Source: a virus | Lineage: Duplodnaviria > Caudoviricetes | DNA: 60,394 nucleotides | Reading direction: 5' to 3' (one strand) | Virus record (IMG/VR): IMGVR_UViG_3300037478_000635 | Location: 1 to 60,394 of that record | Part shown: positions 1 through 59,770 of the stretch, in pieces | How the letters are laid out: each line of letters begins with the position of its first letter | Position numbering within the stretch: position 1 is the first letter of the stretch | Notes under the pieces: generated by a model | Seen by the model: the letters and a program-made list of their open reading frames with translations, nothing else | What the model was told of the DNA's origin: nothing | The model's database searches: none | Made by a program: the position numbers and the translations under genes

Positions 1-1
1 C

Positions 2-154: not shown

Positions 155-164
155 GAGGATCGAG

Positions 165-491
165 ATGGGCGAGTCACAGTTCAATCCGCGCGCGCAGGAC
201 TACCAGGGCCCGAATGTCGTGCTCGATGCGCGCCGGCGGCCGCTGGCGGAAGGCGACGAAGTCATCCTCAGCCTCCGCGGCCCCGTCTACTTCCGCGTCG
301 CGCAGATCACGCCCGCGCTGGGGCTGAACGCGCCGCCTGGGGCCATGCTCGTGCACGTCGGCGCGATGCTGACCTTCACGGCGATGCGCGGCGCGGTGAA
401 CGCTGAGTTCATCCGCGTGCAGACGGCCGAGGAAGCCGGCCCCACGGCGTTCAAGCTGCTCGACGCCCAGCCGGAGGAGCCGGCGCCATGA
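165..491 (+). CDS. hypothetical phage protein
   Basis: AGGAGG RBS, ATG start, ATGA overlap with the next gene. Confidence 0.75.
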   Translation: MGESQFNPRAQDYQGPNVVLDARRRPLAEGDEVILSLRGPVYFRVAQITPALGLNAPPGAMLVHVGAMLTFTAMRGAVNAEFIRVQTAEEAGPTAFKLLDAQPEEPAP

Positions 492-1303
492 CACGCCTCG
501 TCATCGTCACGGCGACGACCGATCTCCGTCGAGCGGACGCATGCCTCAATAGCTGGCTCGTCAGAGCCGCCGAGCCCACGCCGATCGTGCTCGTCGAGAA
601 CGGGGATGCGAACACCGGCTACCTCGGGACGGTTCCCGCCTTTCGTCGTGGCGTCGATCAGGCGCTGGCCGAGTATCCGACGGTCGACGTGATCGCCTGC
701 TTCCACGATGATCTCGAGATCCACGAGGTCGGCTGGGATCAGAAGGTCCTGCGCCACTTCACGCATGAGCCGGCCTGCGGCCTGGCCGGCTTCGGCGGCG
801 CGATTGGGCTGGGCAGCGCGCGGCTCTACCACGACCCCTACGACCCGATGCAGCTGGCGCGAGTGGGCTTCCGGAGCAACCTGATCGACGCCGAGGCGCA
901 CGGGATGCGGAGCCTGCTCACCGAGCGGGTGGCGTGCTTGGATGGGTTCAGCCAGATCGGGCGGCGGGAATTCTGGCTCGGGCAGGTGATCAAGGATCCG
1001 GGAGATACCGACCCGAACCCTCAGACGTTTTCACGGCCCTGGACTGCCCTCGAGCGCCTCGGCGTCATCCACCATTTCTACGACGGCATGCTCGGCTGTC
1101 TCGCGCGGCGCTACGGCTGGGACACCTGGTACCTGCCCGTTGCCTGCCGCCACTACGGGGGACGCACGGCGGTCGGCGACCCCGGATACCAGCACTGGAT
1201 CAACGACAAGACGCAGTCACCGGAGGGGGACCATGAAGTCTGGAAAGCGGCGCACCGCCTCGGCTACGAAGAATTCCGCGACTGCCTCCCACTGCGCGTC
1301 TAG
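488..1303 (+). CDS. GT-A fold glycosyltransferase (GT2-like)
   Basis: N-terminal strand LVIVTAT, IVLVEN, DxD-like FHDDLEI, ACLDGF, HHFYD acceptor-side motif, C-terminal RHYGG. Confidence 0.75.
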   Translation: MTRLVIVTATTDLRRADACLNSWLVRAAEPTPIVLVENGDANTGYLGTVPAFRRGVDQALAEYPTVDVIACFHDDLEIHEVGWDQKVLRHFTHEPACGLAGFGGAIGLGSARLYHDPYDPMQLARVGFRSNLIDAEAHGMRSLLTERVACLDGFSQIGRREFWLGQVIKDPGDTDPNPQTFSRPWTALERLGVIHHFYDGMLGCLARRYGWDTWYLPVACRHYGGRTAVGDPGYQHWINDKTQSPEGDHEVWKAAHRLGYEEFRDCLPLRV

Positions 1304-1459
1304 CCGCTGGACGATGGTCGGCGGCCGGCGCACCTGGCAGGACGGCCCGCCCGAAGACTGGCAGCGCGAGTTCGACGGCTATGCGCGCTGGCTCGCGCCC
1401 TACGGAGTGAACACCCTCGGGTACGCAGTGAGGATAGCGACGAAGAAGGAAGCACGCGC

Positions 1460-1762
1460 ATGACAACCCACCGTAAAACCGGATCGATCGCGCGCCTCTT
1501 CCCGGACCGCGTCTACGGCTTCATCCACTGTCCGGAGGATCAGCGCGACTACTTCTTTCACTCGGCGCAGCTCGACGGCGTGACCTTCCACCAGCTCGTG
1601 CCCGGCGACGAGATGAGCTTCATCGTCGCCGAGGGGATCAAGGGGACCGAGGCGCAGGACGTGCAGCTCGCGCGCCACAACGAGGTCACGGGCCGCGAGA
1701 CGCGCGAGCAGGTCGGGCTGCCGACGCTCCGGCCGAAGCCGGTGAAGCGGGGGCAGGAATGA
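1460..1762 (+). CDS. cold-shock domain (CSD) protein
   Basis: RNP1-like VYGFI, RNP2-like DYFFHSAQL, and LVPGDEMSFIVAEGIKGTEAQDV match the CspA pattern. Confidence 0.85.
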   Translation: MTTHRKTGSIARLFPDRVYGFIHCPEDQRDYFFHSAQLDGVTFHQLVPGDEMSFIVAEGIKGTEAQDVQLARHNEVTGRETREQVGLPTLRPKPVKRGQE

Positions 1763-3285
1763 CGACGAAAGTCGCGCTCCCTCCGGGCGATCTCCACCTG
1801 GCCCGCGATCCCGTCGGCCAACGAACAGCCACACACGAGGTATGTACAAGTACTGTACTCAGAGAGGGCGGCGAGCCGGTGGCCTCGATCGCCCCGGTGG
1901 AGGCCGAGGCGCCGATCGAGGCCGAGGCCGAGGCGCCAGCGCCGGCAGGGGCGGCGGCACGGCTCTGGGGGGCGGCGGCGCCGATGTTCACCTATCTCGC
2001 GGGCGCGGCCGGCTCGGGCAAGACGTTCGCGGTGCGCGCCTGGGCGGCTGACGAGGCCGGCCTCGTGCTTTGCGCCACGACCGGGATCGCCGCGATCAAC
2101 CTCGGGGGGACGACCATCAACGCGCTGCTGGGCTACTTCGACACCAAGAGCCTGCAGGACAGCTACACCAACGGCTTCCTCACCGCCAAGCTCGGCAAGC
2201 TGCTCAAGGCGGGCGTGCGCCGCCTGGTCGTCGACGAGGTCAGCATGCTCGACGGCGACCAGCTCACCTACCTGACAAGAGCGATCGAGGAGGTGAACAA
2301 CCGCGGCTACGCGATCGCGATGTCGCAGGACTGGGACGAGGTGCCAGACAGCGCGGCGCTCGGCCTGACCCTGGTCGGCGACTTCTGTCAGCTGCCGCCG
2401 GTCAAGGCGCCGTTTGCATTCGAGTCGAGCGAGTGGGGCCGCTTCGCCGAAGGCGGTCACACGATCACCCTCACCGAGATCCGCCGGCAGGCCGACCCGG
2501 CTTTCATCGCCGCCCTGCGGGCCGCGCGCCGCGGCGACGGGGCCGGCACGCTCGCCTATTTCGGCGGCCGGCTGCACACCGAGACCGACGACGCCTTCGA
2601 GGGGCCGACGCTGCTGGCCAAGAACGAGGCGGTCGATCGCTACAACTGGATCCGGCTGAACCGGCTGCCGGGGCGAGACGTCTCCTTCGTCTCGAGCCGC
2701 GCCGGCAAGCAGCGCAGCGAGTGGGGGAACCCCGATAAGCCGCCGGCGACCTGGGGCATCCCCGAGCGGCTGCCCCTGAAGATCGGGGCGCTGGTGATGA
2801 TCCTGGCGAACCAGCGCCAGCTCGACGGCCTGGGCTTCGAGTATGTGAATGGCGATCTCGGCGAGCTGGTCGACGCCGACGCGGCGGCCAAGGTCGCGCA
2901 GGTGCGGCTGCAGCGCACCGGCGCCATCGTCGAGGTGAGCTACGTCCGGCGCGAGGTCCTCGTCCCGCTCGATAGCGCGCGCCGGCGGGAGCTGCGGGAT
3001 AAGGGCGAGGCCGACAAGATCGCAGAGGGCGGCAAGTGGGAGATCGCCGGGTGGATCAGCTACCTGCCGATCCGCCTGGCGTACGCGAGTACGGTGCATC
3101 GGTCGCAGGGCCTCTCGCTCGATCGCGTGCAGGTCAACATCCGCGACGCCTTCTTCAAAACCCCGGGGATGCTCTACGTCGCGCTGAGTCGCGCCCGGAC
3201 GGCGGAGGGGCTGCGCCTGGTGGGGAGTGCGGCGGCGCTCATCGAGCGGTGCACGACGGATCCGCGGTTGTCGCGGTGGCTCTGA
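1759..3285 (+). CDS. SF1B helicase (Pif1/RecD/Dda-like)
   Basis: Walker A GAAGSGKT, ATTGIAA, DEVSM, GDFCQLPPV, TEIRRQ, TVHRSQGLSLD, YVALSRAR. Confidence 0.92.
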   Translation: MTTKVALPPGDLHLARDPVGQRTATHEVCTSTVLREGGEPVASIAPVEAEAPIEAEAEAPAPAGAAARLWGAAAPMFTYLAGAAGSGKTFAVRAWAADEAGLVLCATTGIAAINLGGTTINALLGYFDTKSLQDSYTNGFLTAKLGKLLKAGVRRLVVDEVSMLDGDQLTYLTRAIEEVNNRGYAIAMSQDWDEVPDSAALGLTLVGDFCQLPPVKAPFAFESSEWGRFAEGGHTITLTEIRRQADPAFIAALRAARRGDGAGTLAYFGGRLHTETDDAFEGPTLLAKNEAVDRYNWIRLNRLPGRDVSFVSSRAGKQRSEWGNPDKPPATWGIPERLPLKIGALVMILANQRQLDGLGFEYVNGDLGELVDADAAAKVAQVRLQRTGAIVEVSYVRREVLVPLDSARRRELRDKGEADKIAEGGKWEIAGWISYLPIRLAYASTVHRSQGLSLDRVQVNIRDAFFKTPGMLYVALSRARTAEGLRLVGSAAALIERCTTDPRLSRWL

Positions 3286-3313
3286 GGGAGCGGCCGCAGC
3301 TCAGGAGGTAACT

Positions 3314-3829
3314 ATGCATTTCGTCAGAGATGAATTGCGGGCCAACTTTCTCAATCTCGGGCAGGTGGCGTATTGCACCCTTCACACAGCGCACAAGCGC
3401 GAGGCGGCGCGCGTGTTCGCCTGCCACGCCGCCGACGGAGAAGTCATCGGGCACGTCATCGGGCAGCAGCTGCAAGACATCGCCGACGGCCAGAGGTACC
3501 TCCCGGAAACGACCGGAACCAAACTCATCTGGTTCATCTACTACGGAGAAGGAGGCGGGACCGACCAGCTCGACGTGCTGACCTTGCCGGTCATCGGGTG
3601 GAAGGTGTGCGGGGGTGAGATCGCCCCCCTGACGGTGGAAGGCGTCATCGACGGTAACTGGGACGGTGGGAACACCGCCTACTGCCTCGAAGTCGCGACA
3701 GGCGTCTGGGTCTTCCCGGGGGAGTGTACCTGCGAGAGTCTCGACCAGGCCAAGCAGACGGCCCTAGCGAGATTCCGAAATGCTGACGAGCTGGCTGACC
3801 GCGTAGCGCAGGAGGCGCCTCAGCCATGA
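3314..3829 (+). CDS. hypothetical protein
   Basis: AGGAGG RBS before ATG 3314; start revised from the ORF track. Confidence 0.7.
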   Translation: MHFVRDELRANFLNLGQVAYCTLHTAHKREAARVFACHAADGEVIGHVIGQQLQDIADGQRYLPETTGTKLIWFIYYGEGGGTDQLDVLTLPVIGWKVCGGEIAPLTVEGVIDGNWDGGNTAYCLEVATGVWVFPGECTCESLDQAKQTALARFRNADELADRVAQEAPQP

Positions 3830-3863
3830 TCCGCCGCTCGACGGGGATCCGGCGGCTGCAGGC

Positions 3864-4130
3864 GTGGCTATGAAGCTGCCAGCCAGCGCGAAGTACCGGG
3901 CCGACTGGCACCTGTATTCAGCCGACGCCGAGGGGCACACCTGGCAGGACGACTCGATCCAGATCATCCTCCTGCAGGAGATCCGCGACGAGCTGCAGCG
4001 GCTCAACGCCCTGCTCTCCTGCCCCAACTTCGTGCAGATCCCGCAGGTGCTGCGGGCGATCCGGGCGAACACGGCGAGGCCCAGGCGGCGGCGATCGCCC
4101 GCGAAGAAGCAGAAGGAGCCCCAGCCATGA
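3864..4130 (+). CDS. hypothetical protein with basic C-terminus
   Basis: Good codon usage, coiled segment LLQEIRDELQRLNALL, overlaps the next start. Confidence 0.6.
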   Translation: MAMKLPASAKYRADWHLYSADAEGHTWQDDSIQIILLQEIRDELQRLNALLSCPNFVQIPQVLRAIRANTARPRRRRSPAKKQKEPQP

Positions 4131-4305
4131 TCCGCTGCCCACGCCTGCTCGTCCGTCGGATGCTCCGCTGCACCCTCGCCGTCGTCGCCACGCCGGTGCT
4201 CATCCCGATCGACCTCGGCTGGGTGATGCAGGAGGAGTGGGGGCAGCCAGGGACGGCCTTCCCACAGCTGCTCGTGCCGAAGCTCTGGGGCTGGGCGACC
4301 CGCTG

Positions 4306-4644
4306 ATGCCCCGCCGCCCCGACTACCGCTCGCTGCTCACCTGCGAACTGTCGCAGGCCGAGCGCGACGTGCTCGACGAGCTGAAGCGGCTCGCCGGGGT
4401 AGGGAGCGATGCGAACCTGGCGCGGATCGCGCTCTGGTCGTTGGGCGATCACCTCGGGGCCGAGCTGCCGGACGGGGTGTTCGACCTGCGGCTGGGATCA
4501 GGGGCGTGGGCGCGCAACCCCCGGGTGCGGCAGGACGCGGCCTGCCCGCCGCTGCCGCTACCGGCGCCGATCTGGCGGGCGAAGCCGAAGCGGCCGGCGG
4601 CCGATCACCCGTGGCGCGGGGCGGAACCGCGAGGCGGGCGATGA
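4306..4644 (+). CDS. possible ribbon-helix-helix DNA-binding protein
   Basis: TGATG coupling at 4304-4308; LTCELSQAERDVLDELKRLAGVGSDANLARIAL resembles the RHH strand-helix-helix pattern. Confidence 0.45.
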   Translation: MPRRPDYRSLLTCELSQAERDVLDELKRLAGVGSDANLARIALWSLGDHLGAELPDGVFDLRLGSGAWARNPRVRQDAACPPLPLPAPIWRAKPKRPAADHPWRGAEPRGGR

Positions 4645-4860
4645 GCCTCAATGCCGACTGGTTTGTAGGGGAAGCGAGGATGCGATGACGTCATTGGCTC
4701 GATATCGTTGCCTCTTGCGGTCCATGCGAGACGAGCTGTGTCTTGCTGAACGGAACTACGGGGTGGTGCTGGACAACAAGCGGCATCGGGATCTCATCGA
4801 CCAGAATCGTGGCCGCGTCGCCGTTCTCAAGAAGTTGTTGGCTGAGGCGCGGAGGACGCG

Positions 4861-5196
4861 ATGACCGTCACCGACGAGCAGATCCAGCGGGTGCAGCGGC
4901 TGGAAATGGAACTTAGGCGCTTAGCGCTTGTTGGCCCAGAGGTATTGGCCCGTCGGGCAAAGGACGCCGACGCCTTGCGCGCCGTCCTGGACGAGCGGCA
5001 GGAGCGGGAGGAAGGGCCGTGCGAGACGTGTCGATTCGCGAGTTGCGTGGAAGAGGTCGACCTGTTCTGCACGCAGCCTGACCTAATCGAAGCGTCAGGC
5101 GCCATTGCGCGTAGTTCTCCTGGGCTCATCGTCCCTCGGACCATCAACGGCCAGCCCTTCGGCTGTCGCGGGCATGAGCCGAAGGAGGCCCAGTGA
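4861..5196 (+). CDS. hypothetical protein with Cys cluster
   Basis: GGAGG RBS; CETCRF...C...C...GC. Confidence 0.6.
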   Translation: MTVTDEQIQRVQRLEMELRRLALVGPEVLARRAKDADALRAVLDERQEREEGPCETCRFASCVEEVDLFCTQPDLIEASGAIARSSPGLIVPRTINGQPFGCRGHEPKEAQ

Positions 5197-5645
5197 CTCG
5201 ATACACGGCCGAGGAGATGCGCGAACGCGCTGACTGGATTGCCTCGACGCGTGTCCGCCTTCCTGACACTTTGCCAGGTACGGCCAAGATGCTACGCCAA
5301 GCCGCCTCGGACGCCGAGCAGGTGGAAACGATCCGGCGTGCGTGCGTCTGTTCTGAACCCGATCCAGTGATGCAGGCCGACGGCAAGTTCTACTGCTATG
5401 CCTGCAGCTATCAAACCGGGGCGCGTCCTCGATTTCTGGAGCCGGAAACGTGGCTGCGCGAGCTGAACATCCTGCGTGATCAGGTGAAGGAGCAGGCGCG
5501 GGAGATCTCGGCGACGGTGAAGGCCAAGGACGCCCGCCTCGCGGTCCTCAAAGAGGCGCTGCGCGAGTGCCACCAGGAGATCCAGTCGCTCAAGGATAGG
5601 GAGATTCAAGTAGCACAAGATCAGGGGCTGCACGATGGTGAGTGA
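5193..5645 (+). CDS. hypothetical protein, Zn-ribbon plus coiled coil
   Basis: GGAGG RBS, GTG start; CVC...CYAC followed by a heptad-rich tail. Confidence 0.6.
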   Translation: MTRYTAEEMRERADWIASTRVRLPDTLPGTAKMLRQAASDAEQVETIRRACVCSEPDPVMQADGKFYCYACSYQTGARPRFLEPETWLRELNILRDQVKEQAREISATVKAKDARLAVLKEALRECHQEIQSLKDREIQVAQDQGLHDGE

Positions 5646-6528
5646 CATCCTCTGCACCTGCCCCGGCCGACACGGCGATATTCTCTGGACGCTCCCCGCG
5701 ATCCGCGCGCTCCACGAGGCCACCGGCGCCACGATCGATCTCCTCGTCGCCGGCAAGTACGCCGCCGTCTGCCCGCTCCTCGAGCGGCAGCCCTACCTGC
5801 GCGAGTGCGTCGCGATGCCCGAGTGGACGGTCGAGGAGACCGCGCCGATGACGCCGCGCCTGCCCCCGGGGATCCCAGTCGGCTACGACGCGGTCTATCA
5901 CCTCGGGTACGCCGGCTGGCCGGATCGCCCGCTGCCCGATCAGCACCTGTGGACGCTGCAGCAGCAGATCCCGGATCTGGATCTGGTCGAGCAGATCGCG
6001 GAGCGCTATCGACTAGATCGGCCGTGGATTACTCCGCCGAGCCCGCCGATCCCCCCTACCCACTGGTACACCAATCGGCTGGCGATCGGCTTCACCGATG
6101 AGTGGATTGAGTTGAAGGCGGGCCTGGTCTTCGCCCTCCTCGCACGAGTAGAGCGGGGGCGCCCCTACAAGCCGTCGCTGTACTTTGGCGCAGGGAGCCG
6201 GTGGATGGAATGGGAGCGCACGCTTGCCCCGTTCCTCTATGGCCTTTGCACCCCTCGGACGTGGCTCGAGACCGCGCAGTGGGTGGCGGAGTCGGCCGTC
6301 TTCCTCGGCTGCTGCTCGGCGCTCCACGTCCTCGCCTGCGGCCTCGGTACGCCCGTGGTGCTGGTCGAGCCGAACGAGGCGCGCCACCACCCGATCTTCT
6401 ACCCCTATGGCACCGACGGCCCGCAGGTCACCCTCGTGAAGGGGAATGACGGCCGGCCGAGCTTCGACGCGCGGCATACCAGCGCCGTCATCGAGCAGAA
6501 GCTAGCAGAGGTGCGGGATGCGCGGTGA
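5635..6528 (+). CDS. GT-B glycosyltransferase, GT9 (heptosyltransferase)-like
   Basis: GRHGDILWTLPAIRALHEA..ATIDLLV..Y..V.PLLERQPYL at the N-terminus and FLGCCSALHVLACGLGTPVVLV at the C-terminus are GT9 signatures. Confidence 0.8.
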   Translation: MVSDILCTCPGRHGDILWTLPAIRALHEATGATIDLLVAGKYAAVCPLLERQPYLRECVAMPEWTVEETAPMTPRLPPGIPVGYDAVYHLGYAGWPDRPLPDQHLWTLQQQIPDLDLVEQIAERYRLDRPWITPPSPPIPPTHWYTNRLAIGFTDEWIELKAGLVFALLARVERGRPYKPSLYFGAGSRWMEWERTLAPFLYGLCTPRTWLETAQWVAESAVFLGCCSALHVLACGLGTPVVLVEPNEARHHPIFYPYGTDGPQVTLVKGNDGRPSFDARHTSAVIEQKLAEVRDAR

Positions 6529-6706
6529 GCCGCTCAAGCTGTGCGTGCAGGCGCACCCGCCGTTCTGGTACCCCGGCGAGCGCTGCCCCTTCTGCGCCGC
6601 GCTCGCGGCCGTCCACGACCTCGCCTCGCGCGTGCAGGCGCTGCAGGACGAGCTGCAGCAGGCGCGCACGCCGGCGCGACGAGAGGGAGGAGTGCCCCAT
6701 GCGTGA
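6518..6706 (+). CDS. small Cys/His protein
   Basis: GAGG RBS; CVQAH...CPFC then coiled coil. Confidence 0.5.
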   Translation: MRGEPLKLCVQAHPPFWYPGERCPFCAALAAVHDLASRVQALQDELQQARTPARREGGVPHA

Positions 6707-6866
6707 CTACGCCCACCCGCAGGTCGGCGATCGCGTCGTCGTCTACGGCGTGTCGTGCGTCGTCTTCCGTGTCCGCCCGTGGGCCGTCGATGTCGAGGCG
6801 ACCGACGGCTCGGGGCGCTGCTGGCGGGTCAGCGGATGTCCGCTCCGGGTGAAGGAGGCGAGCTGA
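6699..6866 (+). CDS. small SH3/KOW-like hypothetical protein
   Basis: GGAGGAG RBS; PQVGDRVVVYG all-beta pattern. Confidence 0.5.
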   Translation: MRDYAHPQVGDRVVVYGVSCVVFRVRPWAVDVEATDGSGRCWRVSGCPLRVKEAS

Positions 6867-7261
6867 TGCGACTGCTAAATTACGGCGCCGGCGAGATCAC
6901 CGACCGGCTGACCATCCTCAGCCTGAAGATCCTGCACGGCGGCGCGGAGGAGCGGACCAAGCATTTCCGCGATGAGCGGGCGGCGCTGCTGACCAAGCTG
7001 CGCGGGCGCGAGTCGGTGGGCGGCTGGCTGGACCAGGCGCTGATGCTCGGGGCGGTCAACGGGGCGCTGTGGCAGGCGGAGGATGAGCTGCGGGGCTACC
7101 GGCTTGACTACCTCGGCACGATCGTCTCGCGCGATGCGATCTTCGAGGACGCGGCGAAGTGCGCCTTCCGCATCCAGGAACTGAACGATCAGCGCGCCGC
7201 CCTCCTCCAGCAGATCAACGCGCTGACCGGCGAGACCGCTGGACCGGAGAAGCTGACATGA
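6866..7261 (+). CDS. DUF6165/DUF4254-like all-alpha protein
   Basis: GEITDRLTILSLK, NGALWQAEDELR, NDQRAALLQQINALTG match the family pattern as I recall it. Confidence 0.65.
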   Translation: MRLLNYGAGEITDRLTILSLKILHGGAEERTKHFRDERAALLTKLRGRESVGGWLDQALMLGAVNGALWQAEDELRGYRLDYLGTIVSRDAIFEDAAKCAFRIQELNDQRAALLQQINALTGETAGPEKLT

Positions 7262-7773
7262 CTGAAGTCTGGAAGCCGATCCTAGAGTGGCCACGCTACG
7301 AAGCTTCATCACTCGGGCGCATCCGTCACGCGAGGACACAGCGCGTGCGGGCGCTGCACTGGAACATGAGGTTTCGGGGGTGGCAGCTTAGTCTGGAACA
7401 GTACGTGGGCCGTGGGGTCTACAGGCGTCGAACATTCTTCGTCCATCAGTTGGTTGGACTGGCATTTCTCGGCCCCTGTCCACCCGCTCACGAAGTGAAT
7501 CACAAGGACAACGATCAGCAGCATAACGCAGCGGATAATCTTGAGTACCTGACACACAGGGGCAACATGGAGTACGCCGCTCGGCAGGGGCGCATGGCAC
7601 GAGGCGAGCGAGCACCTACACACAAGCTGACGGAGCAGCAGGTTCGGCAGATCCGGGCGCTATACCGCAAAGGCGTGCGTGGCTGCGGAGCACCAGCACT
7701 TGGCAAGCGCTTCGGCGTGGCCGCACAGAGCATTGACGCCATCATTCAACGGCGACATTGGAGCTGGCTGTGA
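7258..7773 (+). CDS. NUMOD4-HNH homing endonuclease
   Basis: EVWKPI..WPRYEASSLGRIR (NUMOD4), VHQLVGLAFLG...VNHKDNDQQHNAADNLEYLT (HNH), C-terminal HTH. Confidence 0.9.
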   Translation: MTEVWKPILEWPRYEASSLGRIRHARTQRVRALHWNMRFRGWQLSLEQYVGRGVYRRRTFFVHQLVGLAFLGPCPPAHEVNHKDNDQQHNAADNLEYLTHRGNMEYAARQGRMARGERAPTHKLTEQQVRQIRALYRKGVRGCGAPALGKRFGVAAQSIDAIIQRRHWSWL

Positions 7774-8720
7774 GGGTCAAACTCGTCACGACGTGGGACA
7801 TGCCCTGCGGAATCAGTGAGCATTCCTACTATCTAGTCAAGGCAGTACAAGCCGCCGATCCTTCGATCATCCACGATCCCGTCACGGATCTGCACCCGCG
7901 TGCCGTCCTCAACGACCCAGCCTCCTTCGATCTGCTCGTCTTGAACTATCACGCTGGACTACTCAGTCAGTGGCAACCTCCGCACATTCAGGCGATGCAG
8001 CAGCGCGGAACCCCGGTGCTGTGCATCTTGCACGACACCGGCGTCCCCAACAGCGACCAGGCGAAGGCGATCGCCGCAGCCGCCGACGCCACCATCGTCC
8101 ACGAGCCGGCGTCCGACCTGCCGGGCACAATCTACTACTGGCGGATGGGCGTGCCGGGCCCTCAGCTGCCACGGGCGGAGGCGGTCGCGCCGATGCGCGT
8201 TGCAGCCGCCCGTCATCGCTGCCTCGGGACGATCGGCTTCCCGTTCCCGTGGAAGCACTACGATCAGCTCGCGCGGCTCACCGCCGAGCTCGGGTGGGCG
8301 CTGCTCCTGATCGCCCCCGGCGCCTCGGCCGCGCAGATCGCCGAGTGGCAGCACCTCAATCCGCTCACGGTCGTCCGCCCCGACTTTGTGCCCCGCGACG
8401 AAGCGATCGGGCTGCTCAGCGCCTGCGACGCGACCGCCTTCGCCTACATCTGCCACAACACGGGGCAGAGCGCGGCGATCCTCCAGGGCATCGCGGCGCG
8501 CCGGCCCGTCTTCGCCTTCCACACCTGCCGGCAGTTCCGCGCGCTCTTCCACGACTCGCTCGGACGGACCGCCATCACCTGGAGCGAGACCTTCGAGGAG
8601 CTGGGCGCGCAGCTGGCGCGCGGCGGCCCGTCGATGATCGTCTCGGCACTGGCTGAGCAGGAGAGCTGGACGGGCGTCGGGCGGCGGTACGCCGACCTCT
8701 ACCGGGGGCTGGCGCGATGA
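7770..8720 (+). CDS. GT-B glycosyltransferase (GT4-like)
   Basis: VTTW..PCGISEHSYYL, ILHD, GTIGFPFPWKHYD, LSACDA, SAAILQGIAARRPV, SWTGVGRRYADLY. Confidence 0.75.
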   Translation: MRVKLVTTWDMPCGISEHSYYLVKAVQAADPSIIHDPVTDLHPRAVLNDPASFDLLVLNYHAGLLSQWQPPHIQAMQQRGTPVLCILHDTGVPNSDQAKAIAAAADATIVHEPASDLPGTIYYWRMGVPGPQLPRAEAVAPMRVAAARHRCLGTIGFPFPWKHYDQLARLTAELGWALLLIAPGASAAQIAEWQHLNPLTVVRPDFVPRDEAIGLLSACDATAFAYICHNTGQSAAILQGIAARRPVFAFHTCRQFRALFHDSLGRTAITWSETFEELGAQLARGGPSMIVSALAEQESWTGVGRRYADLYRGLAR

Positions 8721-9466
8721 GGCCGGACGGGATCGCGCGCTGGGTCTTCCTCCATCATCGCGGCGCGAGCCTCTTCCTCCGTGAGTGGATTCGCCAGCAG
8801 GCTGAGGCGGCCGGCTGGACGGTGAGCCCGACGCTCGCGATGGCGACGCGGCCGCTGACCGCGAGAGAGATCCTGGAGTACAGCTGGAGCTACGATCTGG
8901 TGATCGACGGGCAGGCGCGTCCCGAGACACCGGCGCGCCTCACGCAACCCTGCCCGAGCTGGCGGGGCGTGCATGTCCCACGCGATCCGCGCGCGCTCCT
9001 TCGCTCGGCCTACTACTCGCACCGCCATAGCCATCCGCTCGCTCTCCTCCCGGAACTCGGCCCCCATCGCGTGAAACTGGCCGGGCTTCCACTGGCCGAG
9101 GGGCTGCTCGCCGACCTCGACTTCTACGTCACCAAGCAAGCGATCGAGGCGATCTGTACCTGGCCCTACAACCACCCGGCGGTGCTCGATCTGCCGTTCG
9201 AGCGGATCTTCGGCGCAGGGCCGCTGGCGGGGAGCCTGCTCCTCGCCGCGCTGAAGTGGCTGGGCCTGCCGACTGCGGCAACGCTCATCGTGCCCGAGGC
9301 GACCTGGGAGGCGGTCAGCGGGCGCCCACCGGGCGTTGAGGACATCCGCGCGCACTGCACGGGCCTCACCGCCGCCCTGCCGGCGCGTGTCGAGGCGGAA
9401 CTCCGTCGCCGCTGGGGACCGGATCTGCATCGCCTCGGGTACCTGCGCGACGAGGAGGGGCCGTGA
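8717..9466 (+). CDS. PAPS-dependent sulfotransferase-like protein
   Basis: 5'-PSB-like loop FLHHRGASLFL, 3'-PB motif HVPRDPRALLRSAYYS, LDLPFERI, LKWLGL; the C-terminal RKG lid looks degenerate. Confidence 0.65.
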   Translation: MRPDGIARWVFLHHRGASLFLREWIRQQAEAAGWTVSPTLAMATRPLTAREILEYSWSYDLVIDGQARPETPARLTQPCPSWRGVHVPRDPRALLRSAYYSHRHSHPLALLPELGPHRVKLAGLPLAEGLLADLDFYVTKQAIEAICTWPYNHPAVLDLPFERIFGAGPLAGSLLLAALKWLGLPTAATLIVPEATWEAVSGRPPGVEDIRAHCTGLTAALPARVEAELRRRWGPDLHRLGYLRDEEGP

Positions 9467-10089
9467 CGCTCCCGCTGAGCAAGACGCTCGACCCGGCTGA
9501 CTTCGATCAGCTCAGGGAGGAGCTGGCGATCGTCGATCGCTGCTTCACGGATGAGCGCGAGCAGCATCCGATGCGGCGCTGGGAGTACGCGCTGGCGCTG
9601 CGGGCCTACCACCAGTGGGGGCGACGGGCGCGTGTCCTCCTCGATGTCGGCGGCGGGGGGAGCCCCTTCTACATGATGGTGCCAGGCAAGGAGGTCACCA
9701 TCATCGATCCAGAGTACGGACTCTCGCTCGCGCAGTATCTGACGGAGCCCTACGAACGCCGCCTCGCCGACGCTGTCTTCTGCCTCTCGGTCCTCGAGCA
9801 CGTCGACGACCTCGACGAGTTCGTCTACCACCTGAGCTGCCTGGTGGCGCCAGGCGGGCTGCTGTTCCTGACGATGGACTACTGCGACAGCGCCGGCGCA
9901 GCGCCGGTCGACACGTACCACTTCCATTGGATGCGGCGGCGGATCTTCAACTTTCCGTCCTTGATACCGCTGGCGGATAGCTTCCTCTATCGGGACTGCT
10001 TGTGCTTCGGCGACCACGACTTCACTGCGCACGGCCCCCAGGTCTACGACTACACATTTTGTTCTCTCGCCCTGCGGAAGCGCCTGTGA
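9463..10089 (+). CDS. class I SAM-dependent methyltransferase (small-molecule/sugar type)
   Basis: Motif I LLDVGGGGS, DAVFCLSVLEHV, LVAPGGLLFLT. Confidence 0.85.
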   Translation: MTLPLSKTLDPADFDQLREELAIVDRCFTDEREQHPMRRWEYALALRAYHQWGRRARVLLDVGGGGSPFYMMVPGKEVTIIDPEYGLSLAQYLTEPYERRLADAVFCLSVLEHVDDLDEFVYHLSCLVAPGGLLFLTMDYCDSAGAAPVDTYHFHWMRRRIFNFPSLIPLADSFLYRDCLCFGDHDFTAHGPQVYDYTFCSLALRKRL

Positions 10090-10283
10090 CCAACCGCGAC
10101 TTCCAGCAGGCGCGCGCCGACCAGCTCCAGCGGGTGCTCATCGCCCTGATTCGACGCGACGGGCCGATCACGCTCGCCCAGGGCGCCATCGCCGCGATCG
10201 GCGTCCCGGTGCCTGATCTGATGACGACGACCGATCCGGCCACCGGCGCGATCACGATCGCCGTCCGGGAGCCTGCGCGATGA
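10086..10283 (+). CDS. small hypothetical protein
   Basis: GTGA and ATGA coupling on both sides. Confidence 0.55.
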   Translation: MTNRDFQQARADQLQRVLIALIRRDGPITLAQGAIAAIGVPVPDLMTTTDPATGAITIAVREPAR

Positions 10284-10852
10284 CCCCCGTCACGATCGGG
10301 CTCGATCGCCCGCTGACGCGCGCCGCCGATCTCACCGACTATCCCGCCTGTCTCAGCGTGGCGCGCTGGCAGCAGCGGCTGGGGCAGGAGGCGTACGATC
10401 GCTGGGCGCCGGCGGCCCCGCACGCGCCGCCCGCCGTCTTCTGCTTCAACTGGGGCGCCGCGGCCTTCCGGGCGCCCGGGCGGGATCCGATCTACCGATC
10501 GCACGGCGATCCGCTCCCACGCGAGGCCGACGCGCTCGGGGCCGTCTACGCGCTCTCGGTCCTCGATCGCCTCGACGCGCCGGTGCGCTTCCTCCGGGCG
10601 TACGCGCGCCACCTCGTGCCCGGCGGCCTGCTCGTCTGCACCTTCGCCCTGTGGAATGCGACCGGCGAGGACTGCGCGCTGGGGCACGAGCTGCGCCGGC
10701 GCATCTACGATCAGCACACCTGGAAGCGCCTCGTCACCGACGCCAAGAGCCTGGGGTTCGCCCCCCTCGGCGGCGTCGACTTCCGCTACCACGGCGACCT
10801 GCTCGGCGACCACACGCTGGCCTCGCTGGTGGTGATCAGGGAGACACGATGA
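10280..10852 (+). CDS. methyltransferase paralog with degenerate SAM motif I
   Basis: AVYALSVLDRL, LVPGGLLVCTF, RRRIY, DFRYHG..DHTLASL align with 9463..10089, but there is no DxGxG. Confidence 0.7.
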   Translation: MTPVTIGLDRPLTRAADLTDYPACLSVARWQQRLGQEAYDRWAPAAPHAPPAVFCFNWGAAAFRAPGRDPIYRSHGDPLPREADALGAVYALSVLDRLDAPVRFLRAYARHLVPGGLLVCTFALWNATGEDCALGHELRRRIYDQHTWKRLVTDAKSLGFAPLGGVDFRYHGDLLGDHTLASLVVIRETR

Positions 10853-12087
10853 TCACGGAACGCCCCTGCCGGGCCTGCGGAGGCGCCCTCGAGTCGGTGC
10901 TCGATCTCGGCCCGCTGCGCCTCTCCGCCTTCCCGACCGCCGCCGACGCCGCCGTCGCCACGCCGTCGTCCGTCCCGCTCGATCTCTGTCAGTGCGGCGC
11001 CTGCCGGCTCGTGCAGCTGCGCCACACGGTCGATCCCGATCAGCTCTTCCGCCAGTACTGGTACCGCTCCGGGATCAACGAGACCATGCGCGCCGAGCTG
11101 GCTGATGTCGTCGCGGCCGGGATTCAGGCGGTCGGCGGCCTCCAGGCGGGAGACGTCGTGCTCGATGTGGGCGCCAACGACGGGACGCTGCTGGCCGAGT
11201 ACCGCCGGCAGGCGCCCGAGGTCCGGGTCCGCCGCATCGCCTACGAGCCGGCGGACAACCTGCGCGACGTCCTCACGGCGCACTGCGAGCAGCTCGTGCC
11301 GACCTACTACCCGGCGCAGGCGGCCCACTGGCGCGGCGACGTGCGGATCCTCACGTCGATCGCCTGCTTCTACGATCTCGACGACCCCCACGCCTTCATC
11401 GCCGCCGTCGCCGACACGCTCACCCACGACGGCGTCTGGATCGTGCAGTTCCAGGATCTCTGGCAGATGCTGCGCGCGACCGCCTTCGACAACCTTGTGC
11501 ACGAACACCTGGTCTACTACGCGCTCGCCAGCTTCGAGCGGCTGATCGAGGCGCACGGCCTGCGGGTGGTGTCGGCGAGCCGGCGCGCCATCAACGGCGG
11601 GAGCTACCGCCTGATCGTCCGGCGATCGGCCTACGACGCGACCGACGGCTCGGTCGTGGCGCTGCGGCTGCTCGAGCAGGGCTGCGAGCACTGGGAGACC
11701 CTGCACCGCTTCGCCTGGCGGGTGGGCGAGGCGCGGCGGGAGATCCGCGCGGCGCTCGGGGCGGCGTACCGGGCCGGCCAGGCGATCGATCTCTACGGGG
11801 CCTCGACCAAGGGGAACACGCTCTTGCAGTACTGCGGCATCGGGCCGGAGTGGATCCGTCAGGCGTGGGAGCGGTCGGAGGAGAAGGTCGGTCGCCAGAC
11901 GATCACCGGCATTCCGATCACGAGCGAGGACGCGGGGCGTGAGGCGCCGCCGGATCTGCTGCTCTGCGGGATCTGGCAGTTCCGCGATGCGGTGCTCGCG
12001 CGGGAAGCCGACTATCTACGGCAGGGCGGGCGGATGCTCTTCCCGCTGCCGGTCGTCGACCTGGTTGGAGACAGAGGAGAGGACTAG
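10849..12087 (+). CDS. NDP-hexose C-methyltransferase (Zn-binding N-terminus, Methyltransf_13/14 type)
   Basis: CRAC...CGACRLVQL, YWYRSG, VLDVGANDG, FDNLVHEHLVYY, NGGS, YGASTKGNTLLQYCG, GIPI. Confidence 0.9.
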   Translation: MITERPCRACGGALESVLDLGPLRLSAFPTAADAAVATPSSVPLDLCQCGACRLVQLRHTVDPDQLFRQYWYRSGINETMRAELADVVAAGIQAVGGLQAGDVVLDVGANDGTLLAEYRRQAPEVRVRRIAYEPADNLRDVLTAHCEQLVPTYYPAQAAHWRGDVRILTSIACFYDLDDPHAFIAAVADTLTHDGVWIVQFQDLWQMLRATAFDNLVHEHLVYYALASFERLIEAHGLRVVSASRRAINGGSYRLIVRRSAYDATDGSVVALRLLEQGCEHWETLHRFAWRVGEARREIRAALGAAYRAGQAIDLYGASTKGNTLLQYCGIGPEWIRQAWERSEEKVGRQTITGIPITSEDAGREAPPDLLLCGIWQFRDAVLAREADYLRQGGRMLFPLPVVDLVGDRGED

Positions 12088-12090
12088 CCG

Positions 12091-12288
12091 ATGTTCATCA
12101 CCGATCGCGCCCGCCCGCTGGAGTGCTGCCGGATCTGCGGCGGCCTCATCGTGGCCTGCCCGCCGGACGCGCCAACGGAGATCTACTGCACGGGCTGCTA
12201 CCGCAGCTACGACGAGCGCGCCGCCGCGCACGGAATCACGCTGGCGCCGTCGGCGGGCGGCGGGGTGGAAGGAGGCACGCGATGCTGA
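12091..12288 (+). CDS. small Zn-ribbon protein
   Basis: GGAGAGG RBS; CRIC...CTGC. Confidence 0.6.
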   Translation: MFITDRARPLECCRICGGLIVACPPDAPTEIYCTGCYRSYDERAAAHGITLAPSAGGGVEGGTRC

Positions 12289-12438
12289 TGATCGAGATTG
12301 GCGAGACCCTGGGGCTCGTGCTGCTGGTGGCGATCGCCGCCAGGCTGGTCGTCGCCTGGTGGAACTACGCGGGGAGGCGGCGGCTGTGACCAAACGTCAC
12401 GATCTCGCCGTCCTCCATTCCTCCGCAGGGAGCGCCTG

Positions 12439-12933
12439 ATGCCTGATCACTCCAAGCACGCCGCCCTCGGGGACAAGCCCGACTGGTGGACCTCCGACGA
12501 GTGGGAGACGCCCCCCACCTTCGTCGCGGCGCTCGAGGCCGAATTCGGTCCCTTCGATCTCGATCCCTGCGCGCGCCTTGAGACGGCGAAGGCAGCGTAC
12601 TACTACACGAAGGCGGACGATGGGCTGGCGCAGGCCTGGGCGCGGAGTGCCCGCGTGCATGTCTTCGTCAACCCGCCGTACAGCGATCCTGGTCCGTGGG
12701 TCGCGAAGGCGATCGAGGAGGCGAAGCGCGGCGCGGTGACGCGCCTCCTCTTACCGGCGGCAACCGACGTCGGCTGGTTCCACGAGCTGGTACTACCCTC
12801 GGCGAACGTGCGCTTCCTCCGGGGGCGACTGCGGTTCCACGGATGGGCGGGAACCCCAATCGGCTCGCCCACCGCCGGCAGCCTCCTCGTGTCGATCCCG
12901 CGTGTGGCGGGTGATCGGAGCTTTCAGCTATGA
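12439..12933 (+). CDS. phage DNA N6-adenine methyltransferase (short Dam family)
   Basis: DEWETPP, FDLDPCA, DDGLAQAW, catalytic VFVNPPYS, RFLRGRLRF. Confidence 0.9.
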   Translation: MPDHSKHAALGDKPDWWTSDEWETPPTFVAALEAEFGPFDLDPCARLETAKAAYYYTKADDGLAQAWARSARVHVFVNPPYSDPGPWVAKAIEEAKRGAVTRLLLPAATDVGWFHELVLPSANVRFLRGRLRFHGWAGTPIGSPTAGSLLVSIPRVAGDRSFQL

Positions 12934-13805
12934 GCCCTGCGTACACCTGGACCGTGATGCCCATCCTCGCCAACCGCGATCTCACCATGAGCGCGATCGC
13001 CTCCTGCCTCGCGCAGACCGTGCCGGTCCGCCTCCTCCTCATCAACCAGGGGGTCGAGGATCCCTTCCGCGACGAGCTGGAGCGGCTGGCGGAGGCGTAC
13101 CCCGAGCAGATCCTCCTCTGGAGCCATCAGCCGCCGCTGCCGAGCCTGGCGGCGACGTGGAACCGGGCGCTGCGGTTCGTGTGGGCGACGGGCGGCGACC
13201 GTGCGCTGGTCGTCAACAATGACGTGGAGCTGCACCGAGAGACAGTCTACGGGCTCACCTCCGTGTTCGGGCACACGCAGGCGCTCTTCGTCTCGGCGGT
13301 GGGGGTGACGGCGGAGCAGTTCAATCCAGCCGCCCCGCTGGATACAGCATGGTTCACCGCGCCAGATGCCGAGGGATGGTGGCATCCAGTGGCACCGGGC
13401 GGCCCCGACTTCTCCTGCTTCCTCATCAGCCGCGCCTGCCACGAGCGCTTCGCCTTCGACGAGGCGTTCACGCCCGCCTTTTGCGAGGATCTCGATATGC
13501 ACAGGCGCCTGATGCTCGCCGGCGAGGGCTGTCGGATCTTCTCGATCAATCTCCCCTTCCTCCATCACAGCTCACAGACACTCAAGTCGGTGGACGCCGG
13601 CAAGCGGGCGCGGCTCGAGCAGGGGATTGCGGCTGGGAGCCGGGCGTACTACGAGAAGAAGTGGGGTGGGCCGGTGAATCAGGAGATCTTCTGGCTCCCG
13701 TTCAATGAAGGAGAAGAGCGCGTCTTGCCGGACGGCGCCCCGTGGCCACCGACGACGCCCGCGCTCCAGGCGTGGGTGCAGGCGCAAGAGGCCGCCGATG
13801 GGTAA
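12930..13805 (+). CDS. GT-A glycosyltransferase (GT2)
   Basis: VMPIL, LLLINQG, SLAATWNRAL, VVNNDVE, FDEAF.PAFCEDLDM, HHSSQT. Confidence 0.85.
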   Translation: MSPAYTWTVMPILANRDLTMSAIASCLAQTVPVRLLLINQGVEDPFRDELERLAEAYPEQILLWSHQPPLPSLAATWNRALRFVWATGGDRALVVNNDVELHRETVYGLTSVFGHTQALFVSAVGVTAEQFNPAAPLDTAWFTAPDAEGWWHPVAPGGPDFSCFLISRACHERFAFDEAFTPAFCEDLDMHRRLMLAGEGCRIFSINLPFLHHSSQTLKSVDAGKRARLEQGIAAGSRAYYEKKWGGPVNQEIFWLPFNEGEERVLPDGAPWPPTTPALQAWVQAQEAADG

Positions 13806-14061
13806 GTCGCTCGACGATCTCCCCCTCGACGACTCTCCACTCGACGACGGCGCCTGGTCGGACTTCTGCGCGGAGATCGATCGCCTGATCATGAGCGACG
13901 ACTACGCCTGGGCGCTCGACACGCTCGAGGGGATCCGCGAGACGGTCAGCCGGTACCAGCACGTGACCGAGGGGCAGCGGCGGGCGATCGCGAACATCCG
14001 GGACGCGCGGAAGGGCGGCGAGAAGAAATGGGGACGGCGGTACGAAGGGTGGCGGCGCTGA
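13798..14061 (+). CDS. hypothetical protein
   Basis: GAGG RBS, coupled to both neighbours. Confidence 0.6.
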   Translation: MGKSLDDLPLDDSPLDDGAWSDFCAEIDRLIMSDDYAWALDTLEGIRETVSRYQHVTEGQRRAIANIRDARKGGEKKWGRRYEGWRR

Positions 14062-38179: not shown

Positions 38180-38749
38180 CTACGTGGTCTCGGGCACGTC
38201 GAGATCGACGAGTGCCGTCGCCGCCGGGGCGTCCGCCGTGAGCGGCGCCGCCACGCGACCCATCAGCGTGTAGGTCGGCGCGGTGCCGGCCGCCTCGCGC
38301 TGCACCTTGCCGTCGGTCGCCGAGGGGATGACGCCGTCGCCCGCCGCGAGCGCCCCCATCGACGCATCGACGAACTTGACGACCTTGGGCCCGCCGATCT
38401 GCACGCACATGTAGTCGCCTGCGGCGGTCCAGGCGCGGCAGAACACGCCGGCGACGTCGTTGCGCGAGCTGGCGTCGGCGTCGGTCGTCACCAGGTACTG
38501 GGCCCGGTCGGCCCACCAGGCGGTGGCCCCCCCGTAGGGCGCGACGGCCATGGTCGAGTCCGACTTGACGAGCTGGTACCGCTTCGACCGGCCCGCCGAC
38601 GCCGTCTCGACGCCGGGGGCCTGCCGCTGCGGGTTGAGGATCGTGAAGCGCGCGCCGAGCAGGCCCGGCGCGTGCAGGACGGGCGTGCTCTCGGTTTCCG
38701 GATCGCCGGACTGGAGATAGACCGGCGGCATTTCCCATCGTGATGGCAT
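38180..38749 (-). CDS. capsid decoration/cement protein (putative)
   Basis: Directly after the MCP; YQLVK, AGVF, GDYMCVQIGG beta-tulip-like pattern. Confidence 0.6.
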   Translation of the reverse strand: MPSRWEMPPVYLQSGDPETESTPVLHAPGLLGARFTILNPQRQAPGVETASAGRSKRYQLVKSDSTMAVAPYGGATAWWADRAQYLVTTDADASSRNDVAGVFCRAWTAAGDYMCVQIGGPKVVKFVDASMGALAAGDGVIPSATDGKVQREAAGTAPTYTLMGRVAAPLTADAPAATALVDLDVPETT

Positions 38750-59768: not shown

Positions 59769-59770
59769 TC

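Follow-up and report, generated by a model that had tools for sequence, protein, structure and literature searches.

A putative optional glycan-synthesis module with a sugar 3-C-methyltransferase in a lineage of uncultured, high-GC phages

IMGVR_UViG_3300037478_000635 is a linear IMG/VR virus record (positions 1-60,394; the whole record was analysed and is called the window below), which is estimated to be 87% complete and has a guanine plus cytosine (GC) content of about 69%. Its capsid, terminase, tail and PolA genes identify it as a phage, uncultured and of soil type. On its plus strand lie the genes for a nucleoside diphosphate (NDP)-hexose 3-C-methyltransferase (C-MT, 10849..12087) and for four glycosyltransferases (GTs), two of which are GT2-like enzymes of the GT-A type (GT-A1, 488..1303, and GT-A2, 12930..13805), while the other two are GT-B enzymes with a GT9-like fold (GT-B9, 5635..6528) and a GT4-like fold (GT-B4, 7770..8720), respectively. 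Judged by sequence comparison, these core genes form one optional, horizontally mobile glycan-synthesis module. The best single explanation for it, which we hold tentatively and place just short of probable, is that the glycan is attached to a particle protein, with the product of the gene that immediately follows the major capsid gene (the post-capsid protein) as the candidate acceptor.

Distribution of the module

A scan of IMG/VR with the C-MT alone retrieved no relative; the family profile of the GT9-like protein was needed, which retrieved 14 related viral loci. By tblastn of the window proteins, GT-A1 and GT-B9 were found in all 14 of these loci, GT-B4 in 13, the C-MT and a DUF4254-like protein in 11 each and GT-A2 in ten, whereas two S-adenosylmethionine (SAM) methyltransferase paralogs were found in eight (paralog 1) and seven (paralog 2). 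Where C-MT and GT-A2 are missing, the locus in most cases breaks off a few kb past the match to the GT9-like gene. The phages in which the core is present have GC contents of 39%, 49% and 60-70%.

Conversely, a search with the capsid protein yielded 75 loci at 66-99% identity, and the module was looked for in 17 further records no shorter than 46 kb. One of these records (G015) has all of GT-B9, C-MT, GT-A1, GT-A2 and GT-B4, and the other 16, nine of them at least 93% complete, have none of the five. Because five genes share one presence/absence pattern across 17 records, their grouping is not due to chance. The protein-by-genome matrix indicates that the module is lost en bloc, though a retained helicase gene lies between the lost genes, and four complete module-less genomes contain no GT2 or GT1/4 Pfam match. 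The joint presence and absence and the en-bloc loss therefore suggest that the module is optional and is inherited or lost as a unit. An earlier reading of this DNA from its letters alone (the original prediction) had proposed one cytoplasmic pathway with multiple glycosyltransferases and had named co-occurrence across related phage contigs as a check. The core is indeed shared in the 14 loci and jointly absent in 16 of the 17 capsid relatives, and this shared inheritance, together with the homology of the C-MT, supports the single pathway.

Further structural open reading frames (ORFs) that had seemed specific to module-bearing genomes in a first clustering were discarded, for the tblastn matrix found them missing in some of these genomes or present in some module-less ones. 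A distant module-less record, G031 (L113-L116; about 11.0 and 18.3 kb), keeps a GT4 gene, a small gene of the type found at 165-491 in the window and one GT2 gene, and carries a third post-capsid allele; this reduced set may be a simpler or ancestral glycan system.

Enzymes of the module

The C-MT is the only enzyme of the window itself that is strongly recognised by Pfam, with three domains above the cut-off (Methyltransf_14, 1.2e-29; Methyltransf_13, 1e-11; Methyltransf_23, 2.3e-10). It matches the D-mycarose 3-C-methyltransferase (PDB 4rv9) over its full length (1.4e-51, residues 1-400), and likewise TcaB9 (3ndi, about 1e-35), with the four N-terminal cysteines of the zinc-site pairs in register and the same three-domain layout. 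Its start is the ATG at 10849, not 10651, and overlaps the upstream stop. By this homology, the assignment to the NDP-hexose 3-C-methyltransferases of the TcaB9/MtmC type is clear, and the predicted NDP-hexose C-methyltransferase with its branched-methyl sugar step stands. The two solved bacterial deoxysugar enzymes serve actinomycete antibiotic pathways, whereas the C-MT here is found in a phage, together with GTs and with no aglycone genes.

Some relatives carry genes for the sugar precursor as well. In the locus of 39% GC (L013), an NDP-sugar 4,6-dehydratase gene (7.9e-98) lies directly upstream of the C-MT gene, and the gene order is GT2, GT4, GT-A1 homolog, 4,6-dehydratase, C-MT, GT4-like, GT9-like homolog, FkbM methyltransferase and a rhamnosyl-O-methyltransferase-like protein. 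An SDR epimerase/dehydratase gene stands beside the C-MT gene in L014, while the extra genes of the locus of 49% GC (L015) encode a Polysacc_synt_2 dehydratase, further GT2 enzymes, a PIG-L deacetylase fusion and an 898-residue GT4-GT2-GT2 fusion. FkbM methyltransferases are found inside the cluster in five high-GC relatives.

Most of the GTs are recognised through their families or their predicted folds. For GT-A1, the window protein matches the Pfam family Glyco_tranf_2_5 below the threshold (E 0.004, 17.4 bits against a cut-off of 27), while in a 15-member ortholog set this family is found in 11 proteins and Glycos_transf_2 in four (best 3e-14), and the L013 copy of the GT2-type GT-A passes Pfam with 53.7 bits against a cut-off of 23.3. 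H73 and D75 (in an 'HDD' block) and D152-G153 are invariant in the alignment of GT-A1. The GT-A2 protein of the window has no Pfam match and is assigned through PHROG 29879 ('galactosyl transferase', 1.3e-12) and through Glycos_transf_2 matches in four of 11 orthologs; its conserved blocks are NNDV (with D98 invariant), PDFSCF and CEDxDxHRR (E186-D187). Both proteins thus carry an acidic motif of the DxD type, and we take the acidic residues of the HDD, NNDV and CEDxD blocks to be the metal/donor site.

GT-B9 (5635-6528) matched no family in Pfam, PHROG or NCBIfam, and among its 184 metagenomic homologs a Pfam domain occurs in none of the 120 listed. Its AlphaFold2 model has a predicted local distance difference test (pLDDT) score of 91.9, and the ten top PDB matches by Foldseek are all GT9 enzymes, namely 3tov (5.8e-9), WaaF (1psw), WaaC (2gt1, 2h1h, 2h1f, 6dfe) and TibC (4rap), with E-values from 5.8e-9 to 5.8e-7. 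In BFVD, the matches listed include RfaF, Aah/TibC and GT9 entries of uncultured phages, with giant-virus glycosyltransferases on top. The family profile of GT-B9 retrieved only TibC from the PDB (E 0.49). According to the model, GT-B9 has a GT9-like fold; by sequence it is not a GT9 member. Heptose-nucleotide genes are absent from the window, and one relative has an ORF with a weak match to the PHROG 'phosphoheptose isomerase' (4e-5).

GT-B4 has 180 homologs and an AlphaFold2 model with a pLDDT of 94.7, whose Foldseek matches in the PDB are GT4 enzymes (E-values of 1e-9 to 3e-8 and template modelling (TM) scores of 0.63-0.76), including HepE (1.4e-9, TM score 0.71), BA1558, PimB', PimA, BshA (TM score 0.76) and MshA. 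The window protein itself matches no Pfam family, while among 45 family members Glyco_trans_1_4 is found in eight, Glyco_transf_4 in six and Glyco_trans_4_4 in three (best E 7e-6). Single-sequence PDB searches with the five uncharacterised enzymes were uninformative, one hit being a chance IMPDH-like stretch, and the family-profile searches gave marginal glycosyltransferase matches only.

A fifth GT is found in relatives, a GT4 enzyme of 386 amino acids (Glycos_transf_1, 1.6e-10; PHROG 2170, 2e-24), whose gene lies just upstream of the equivalent of the gene at 165-491. In the complete relative G006, the counterparts of the last gene (59720-60295) and the second gene (165-491) of our record are about 12 kb apart, and the stretch of G006 absent from the record holds the GT4 gene, an AAA_25 ATPase gene and three conserved genes of no assigned function (f1, f8 and f11). 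Since the ends of the record flank this GT4 region, the phage of the window probably has a fifth glycosyltransferase, which is absent from the record. The two GT-A and two GT-B enzymes named by the original prediction are all present, with their folds supported.

Two class-I SAM methyltransferases are encoded between GT-B4 and the C-MT on the same strand, paralog 1 at 9463..10089 (Methyltransf_23, 2.1e-6; Methyltransf_11, 9.3e-5) and paralog 2 at 10280..10852 (Methyltransf_11, 0.005). Their predicted paralogy is borne out by 31% identity over 112 residues (E 3e-9). The O-methylation of the glycan that had been ascribed to them is weakened, as a homolog of paralog 1 is kept in four of five module-less genomes: an enzyme whose homolog outlives the loss of every glycosyltransferase need not act on the glycan.

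Candidate acceptor of the glycan

The post-capsid protein is encoded on the minus strand at 38180..38749, directly after the gene of the major head protein (38778-39824, minus strand) in the block of particle genes, and is 189 amino acids long in the window and about 185 in the lineage. Fourteen core proteins were compared between seven genomes with the module (plus) and five without it (minus). For the post-capsid protein, the identity is 0.57 and 0.53 within the groups and 0.40 between them, a difference of 0.15 (0.24 without the two most distant genomes). It is the sole outlier, since the within-minus-between difference of the other 13 proteins is -0.01 to 0.03 and at most 0.06. In 20 of the 225 alignment columns of the post-capsid protein, the residues of the plus and minus groups are disjoint, and the plus allele is richer in Ser and Thr, with TDSTMTV where the minus allele has VDAAAAAA; most plus alleles end in PETT.

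Typing by blastx assigned the plus allele to all eight typed module-plus loci, four of which are independent of the references, and likewise to the window and G006. Among module-less records, the minus allele was assigned to seven of the nine complete ones and to six of the seven incomplete ones. The allele follows the module in 22 of 22 typed records whose major capsid protein is at least 79% identical.

Homologs of the module's GTs are also found among particle genes elsewhere. The Synechococcus phage S-CBS4 (gp014-016) encodes a homolog of the relatives' GT4 (9e-8; 7e-31 with the L013 copy) and a homolog of GT-A2 (gp015, 1e-12) as an adjacent pair, accompanied by a SAM methyltransferase, and this pair is located between the portal gene and the head protease/capsid genes. 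At the same portal-to-protease/capsid place, Cluster O mycobacteriophages carry an O-methyltransferase gene and three glycosyltransferase genes, according to the accessible text of PMC4351075. On its flanks in L013, the module has a tail-collar gene and a PA14-domain gene.

Based on these observations, the following pathway is proposed. The C-MT would take a host-made NDP-4-keto-6-deoxyhexose, for which distant relatives bring their own 4,6-dehydratase, and would add the 3-C-methyl branch. With that sugar, the four GTs of the window (two GT2-like, one GT4-like and one GT9-like), joined in relatives by the fifth, a GT4, would assemble a short hetero-oligosaccharide. The acceptor would be phage-borne and most likely a particle protein, namely the post-capsid protein at Ser/Thr positions that are specific to the module-linked allele. 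Such a glycan would be dispensable for assembly and would probably shield the particle surface or alter it; it could be, but need not be, a substrate of the SAM methyltransferases.

Several observations weigh against this proposal. The capsid protein ends in '...LSRILHGFTA' and lacks a Ser/Thr tail at its C-terminus, and an alignment of nine module-plus and nine module-minus records contains no separating column among 357, with the same length and similar ends; the capsid protein thus does not show the acceptor pattern described in mycobacteriophages. A search of the structural proteins for Ser/Thr-rich tails found only a short TDTPDTTSTTTP stretch, in a protein of 478 amino acids at 21099-22535. 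The module of this lineage lies among replication genes rather than structural ones. No match for the post-capsid protein was found by Pfam and profile scans or by tblastn against INPHARED, and to name it a 'decoration protein' would be a guess from its position. The three exceptions in the typing of module-less records belong to a distant module-less sub-lineage (capsid identity 66-70%) with a third allele, which scores slightly nearer the plus type. In the capsid tree, the module-less records form nearly one clade, which leaves two independent contrasts; both are as expected (in one, the plus record G004 branches within a well-supported clade of minus records), but a sign test on only two contrasts cannot reach significance. 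Pfam found no 4,6-dehydratase or 4-ketoreductase in the window, so that the phage would need the dehydratase and the reductase of its host. Finally, the best fold matches of GT-B9 are enzymes of the lipopolysaccharide (LPS) core, and the phage is uncultured. The protein target that the original prediction favoured gains some weight from the allele lead and from the lower likelihood of DNA as the target (see below), and loses some through a capsid protein without an acceptor tail.

Alternatively, the module could remodel a glycoconjugate of the host envelope (LPS core or O-antigen, wall polymer or capsule), with a lipid-linked acceptor at the cytoplasmic face and export by the host, in order to block superinfection or to keep progeny off debris. 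We consider this unlikely, even though the solved folds closest to GT-B9 are the LPS heptosyltransferases WaaF and WaaC. GT4 and GT2 enzymes typically use lipid-linked sugars without transmembrane segments. The original prediction had noted that the membrane proteins needed for GtrABC-type serotype conversion are absent; this does not exclude the host surface, since WaaC and WaaF, to our understanding, act on a lipid-linked acceptor without any transmembrane segment. The tyrosine-recombinase genes in or near the cluster in four relatives (L002-L005) hint at temperate habits; there is, however, no integrase match among the scanned ORFs of the window or the 73 scanned ORFs of G006. Precedents are TarP, a prophage-encoded GT-A that modifies wall teichoic acid (cited in the accessible text of Pyle et al., bioRxiv 10.1101/2023.12.21.572611), and the GMD/fucose-synthase sets of cyanophages, which are read as host-metabolism genes in the accessible part of PMC10611076. 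Nevertheless, no flippase, polymerase or membrane protein was found in the module, and the co-variation of the capsid-adjacent allele is left unexplained. A phage-borne acceptor is favoured because the same core spans 39-70% GC, over which the chemistry of host envelopes should differ, and a pathway tied to one host envelope would not be expected to spread in this way.

It is less likely still that the module makes a free glycan or one linked to a small molecule, such as a polymethylated cytoplasmic polysaccharide or a glycosylated metabolite, for use in replication or counter-defence. In line with this idea, the enzymes all appear soluble by a crude measure of hydropathy, the capsid protein lacks an acceptor tail, and the solved relatives nearest to the C-MT come from antibiotic deoxysugar pathways. 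The structural matches of the GTs also include SenB, BshA, MshA, AviGT4 and the methylmannose-polysaccharide mannosyltransferase 7qsg. However, neither the window nor G006 contains aglycone-forming genes, and neither the allele co-variation nor the placement of homologs in structural modules would be explained.

Hypermodification of the phage DNA with an oligosaccharide against restriction, on a base prepared by an enzyme that is not yet recognisable, seems very unlikely. The location of the module within the replication block, between the genes of the helicase, Dam, the D12 methylase and a UDG-PolA fusion, would suit such a role, and its dispensability fits an anti-restriction accessory. The accessible text of Pyle, Lund, O'Toole and Saleh (bioRxiv 2023.12.21.572611) describes phage clusters near polymerase, helicase and methylase genes, whose GT-A and GT-B enzymes, related to those of LPS and teichoic acid, add mono- to trisaccharides including heptose to 5-hydroxymethylcytosine. 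As described there, these clusters need a C5-methyltransferase plus a 5mYOX or a ThyS homolog, none of which was found here or in complete relatives, and about 65% of GT-bearing contigs have no such partner, which makes action on DNA less likely for them. Among 13 records (the window and 12 relatives, seven of them complete), the profiles of the ThyA family (PF00303) and of C5-methylases (PF00145) found nothing while their positive controls worked; the Tet_JBP profile (PF12851) found nothing either, but its control was silent too. No base-modifying enzyme was found by Pfam in 73 of the 80 ORFs called in G006, and the ThyA homolog of the distant record G014 lies more than 50 kb from its cluster. 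A DNA target is therefore unlikely, with the same reservation for Tet_JBP, and the earlier remark that no base-hydroxylating gene is visible, which leaned away from DNA, now extends to complete relatives. The conserved neighbours f1, f8 and f11 had been candidates for the base-activating step and were rejected, being retained in module-less genomes; a DNA-modification set that replaces the module in module-less relatives was rejected too, as no C5-methylase or ThyA gene is found there. T4 beta-glucosyltransferase is absent from the 50 PDB and 50 BFVD matches listed for GT-B9 and from those listed for GT-B4, and we know of no precedent for a C-branched deoxysugar on DNA. Most improbable of all is an oligosaccharide with a 3-C-methyl sugar on DNA without any hydroxymethyl-pyrimidine, TET or C5-methylase step, in which the post-capsid allele would follow the module to handle or package bulkier DNA, although this, if true, would be a new class of DNA hypermodification.

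Other genes in the window

From GT-B9 to the C-MT, the enzymes lie in a chain of closely spaced genes, all on the plus strand. The overlaps are 1-4 nt at 6525, 6866, 7258, 7770, 8717, 9463 and 10849, so that the predicted translational coupling from 5635 to 12087 holds at these seven junctions and is broken by a gap of 190 nt between 10089 and 10280. The predicted lack of signal peptides and transmembrane segments in the enzymes is upheld by crude hydropathy, used without a dedicated predictor: no N-terminal hydrophobic stretch was found, and the maximum Kyte-Doolittle mean over 19 residues is 1.89, in a buried core strand.

A protein with a sulfotransferase fold is encoded at 8717..9466. It has no Pfam match; in the ESM Atlas, it reaches a feature score of 0.97 and a structural TM score of 0.80-0.83 to Sulfotransfer_1 clusters (100% PF00685). 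None of the 14 related loci encodes it. Two close homologs were retrieved from 5.8 billion clusters, besides 451 distant homologs. An alignment with 34 relatives shows that the N-terminal HH(K/R)xAS block and the RDPRxxxxSxY block are retained, while six residues are deleted in frame from the near-invariant C-terminal block HYRxGxxGDW, which the nearest homolog (56% identity) keeps. These blocks, HYRxGxxGDW included, presumably contact 3'-phosphoadenosine 5'-phosphosulfate, and the disruption of the last one makes sulfotransferase activity doubtful. The protein would be a private and possibly inactive addition. Thus, of the predicted sulfotransferase-like gene and sulfated glycan, the fold is retained (Atlas TM score 0.83), whereas sulfation loses ground through the deletion and the absence from all 14 loci.

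Some smaller genes accompany these enzymes. The protein of 108 amino acids at 165..491, whose gene overlaps that of GT-A1 by 4 nt, has no family match; its homologs occur in seven of the 14 related loci, are lost from four of five module-less genomes and are kept in G031 beside a GT4 gene, and it is a possible member of the module on this distribution. Directly after GT-B9 follow three genes that the original prediction overlooked. The ORF of 113 amino acids at 6525..6866 is a doubtful gene that fills the coupled chain, with no family match and no homolog in the 14 loci. The DUF4254-like helical protein of 131 amino acids at 6866..7261 matches Pfam DUF4254 below the cut-off (3.2e-5) and a mostly viral DUF4254 cluster in the Atlas (score 0.92); it occurs in 11 of the 14 loci, as mentioned above, and in none of five module-less genomes, and the prediction of a complex between its family and the GT9-like family scored 0.04. 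The third gene, at 7258..7773, encodes an HNH homing endonuclease (HNH_3, 5.8e-11; NUMOD4; PHROG 59, 6e-32), an inserted element and not a pathway enzyme, which is found at this position in none of the 14 loci.

Such selfish elements recur: L004 has another HNH gene at a different spot of the module (L004:6363-6851), and an HNH gene of S-CBS4 adjoins its glycosyltransferase pair. Circularly permuted YpsA (SLOG) genes are found in or beside the module in L002 (14006-14470, 3.5e-28) and L011 (19032-19655, 2.2e-24), and several relatives have a phosphatase-like gene (PHROG 335, 3.6e-14) between C-MT and GT-A2 that is not in the window. Between the C-MT and Dam genes of the window lies a Cys-rich ORF of 65 amino acids (12091-12288, plus strand; CCRICGG...C) with high third-position GC. 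From the helicase gene to the GT9-like gene (3227-5645, plus strand), about five ORFs have neither a family match nor a homolog in the 14 loci, and by this comparison the stretch is a hypervariable slot of the replication block.

The phages of this lineage have high-GC genomes of about 70 kb; in view of this composition, third-position GC was used to call the genes. The plus-strand block (1-18263) holds the replication genes, which encode a cold-shock-domain protein, a Dda-like helicase, the HNH endonuclease, a Dam methylase, a D12 methylase and PolA. The minus-strand block (18.6-54 kb) holds the particle genes, among them those of an SLT-domain tail protein, two SU10-adaptor paralogs, the major head protein and the large terminase. 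PolA (15150-18263, plus strand) has an N-terminal domain of the UDG superfamily (UDG 1.1e-18, residues 26-168), and the same fusion is present in G006. The adaptor paralogs stand in tandem (29666-30298 and 30295-31020, minus strand; 2.4e-11 and 2.2e-13), hinting at a podovirus-like neck as in the SU10 (kuravirus) type. An ORF of 136 amino acids in the particle-gene block (23548-23958, minus strand) has a weak PHROG acetyltransferase match (8.4e-6) and homologs in both module-plus and module-minus genomes.

No close relative was found in INPHARED by megablast of the region. PolA has distant partial matches only in this collection, in which GT-A1, GT-B9, GT-B4 and the post-capsid protein have no match by tblastn. 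A scan of positions 1-15200 for sigma-70 promoters and terminators found no site, and the GTDB genomes scanned with the GT9-like family profile contained no match and thus gave no host or prophage lead.

Relation to known systems

Few glycans made by phages are known, namely the glucosylated DNA of T4, the DNA glycans found recently and the glycosylated particles of mycobacteriophages. The closest parallel to the pathway proposed here is virion glycosylation in actinobacteriophages (Cluster O, Corndog gp35-38), in which soluble GTs and a methyltransferase are likewise encoded by the phage, the methylated glycans are thought to be on particle proteins, and the genes are not part of the essential content of the lineage. 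Freeman and colleagues are said, in passages that cite their 2023 work, to have placed the glycans of actinophages on the C-terminal tails of capsid and tail-tube subunits. The portal-to-protease position of the actinobacteriophage genes is the one occupied in S-CBS4 by two homologs of the GTs described here. In contrast, the present module is larger (five GTs), includes a sugar 3-C-methyltransferase, lies in the replication block, and occurs with a capsid protein that has no C-terminal tail.

Another similar arrangement is found in DSL-LC02, a metagenome-assembled Synechococcus phage (OR032571), with the order GMD, C-MT homolog (2e-41), GDP-fucose synthase, seven glycosyltransferases and FkbM methyltransferase. 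As in the loci described here, a 4,6-dehydratase, a C-MT homolog, a reductase, a run of GTs and an FkbM methyltransferase are combined in one operon-like block, and its GT4 matches GT-B4 at 4.7e-6. Unlike the phage of the window, however, DSL-LC02 makes its own activated sugar precursor, and it has no match to GT-A1, GT-A2 or GT-B9. In the accessible part of the report on this phage (PMC10611076), GMD and fucose synthase are described as auxiliary genes in their own right, and the C-methyltransferase is not discussed. Giant viruses such as chloroviruses and mimiviruses also glycosylate capsid or fibril proteins with their own cytoplasmic GTs and methyltransferases, independently of the host secretory machinery, as the accessible text of PMC9614988 describes. 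Their hosts are eukaryotic, though, and their enzymes are unrelated in sequence to those of the module. To our knowledge, no C-methyltransferase is part of the glycan machinery of giant viruses.

Glycan sets encoded by phages and other viruses are already established, i.e., those for actinophage virions and for phage DNA, the sugar sets of cyanophages and the machinery of giant viruses. What appear to be undescribed are the combination of a 3-C-methyltransferase with GT2-, GT4- and GT9-like enzymes, the all-or-none behaviour of the set in a lineage of phages of about 70 kb, and its linkage to a capsid-adjacent allele. Nothing relevant turned up in searches of the literature on DUF4254, phage sulfotransferase, phage C-methyltransferase and S-CBS4 glycosyltransferase, with most subscription journals and bioRxiv supplements outside their reach. 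With no earlier report located, the C-MT would be the first branched-chain (C-methyl) sugar step found in a phage glycan pathway, and to the few known cases the module would add a much larger set of enzymes and a mobile cassette that spans very different GC contents.

The lineage also provides natural controls, since sister phages with capsid genes about 80% identical lack the whole module, and one capsid-adjacent allele changes with it, which makes the proposed acceptor a concrete and testable hypothesis. If confirmed, the finding would bear on how phage particles are shielded from recognition by the host or in the environment, and would offer soluble enzymes for glyco-engineering.

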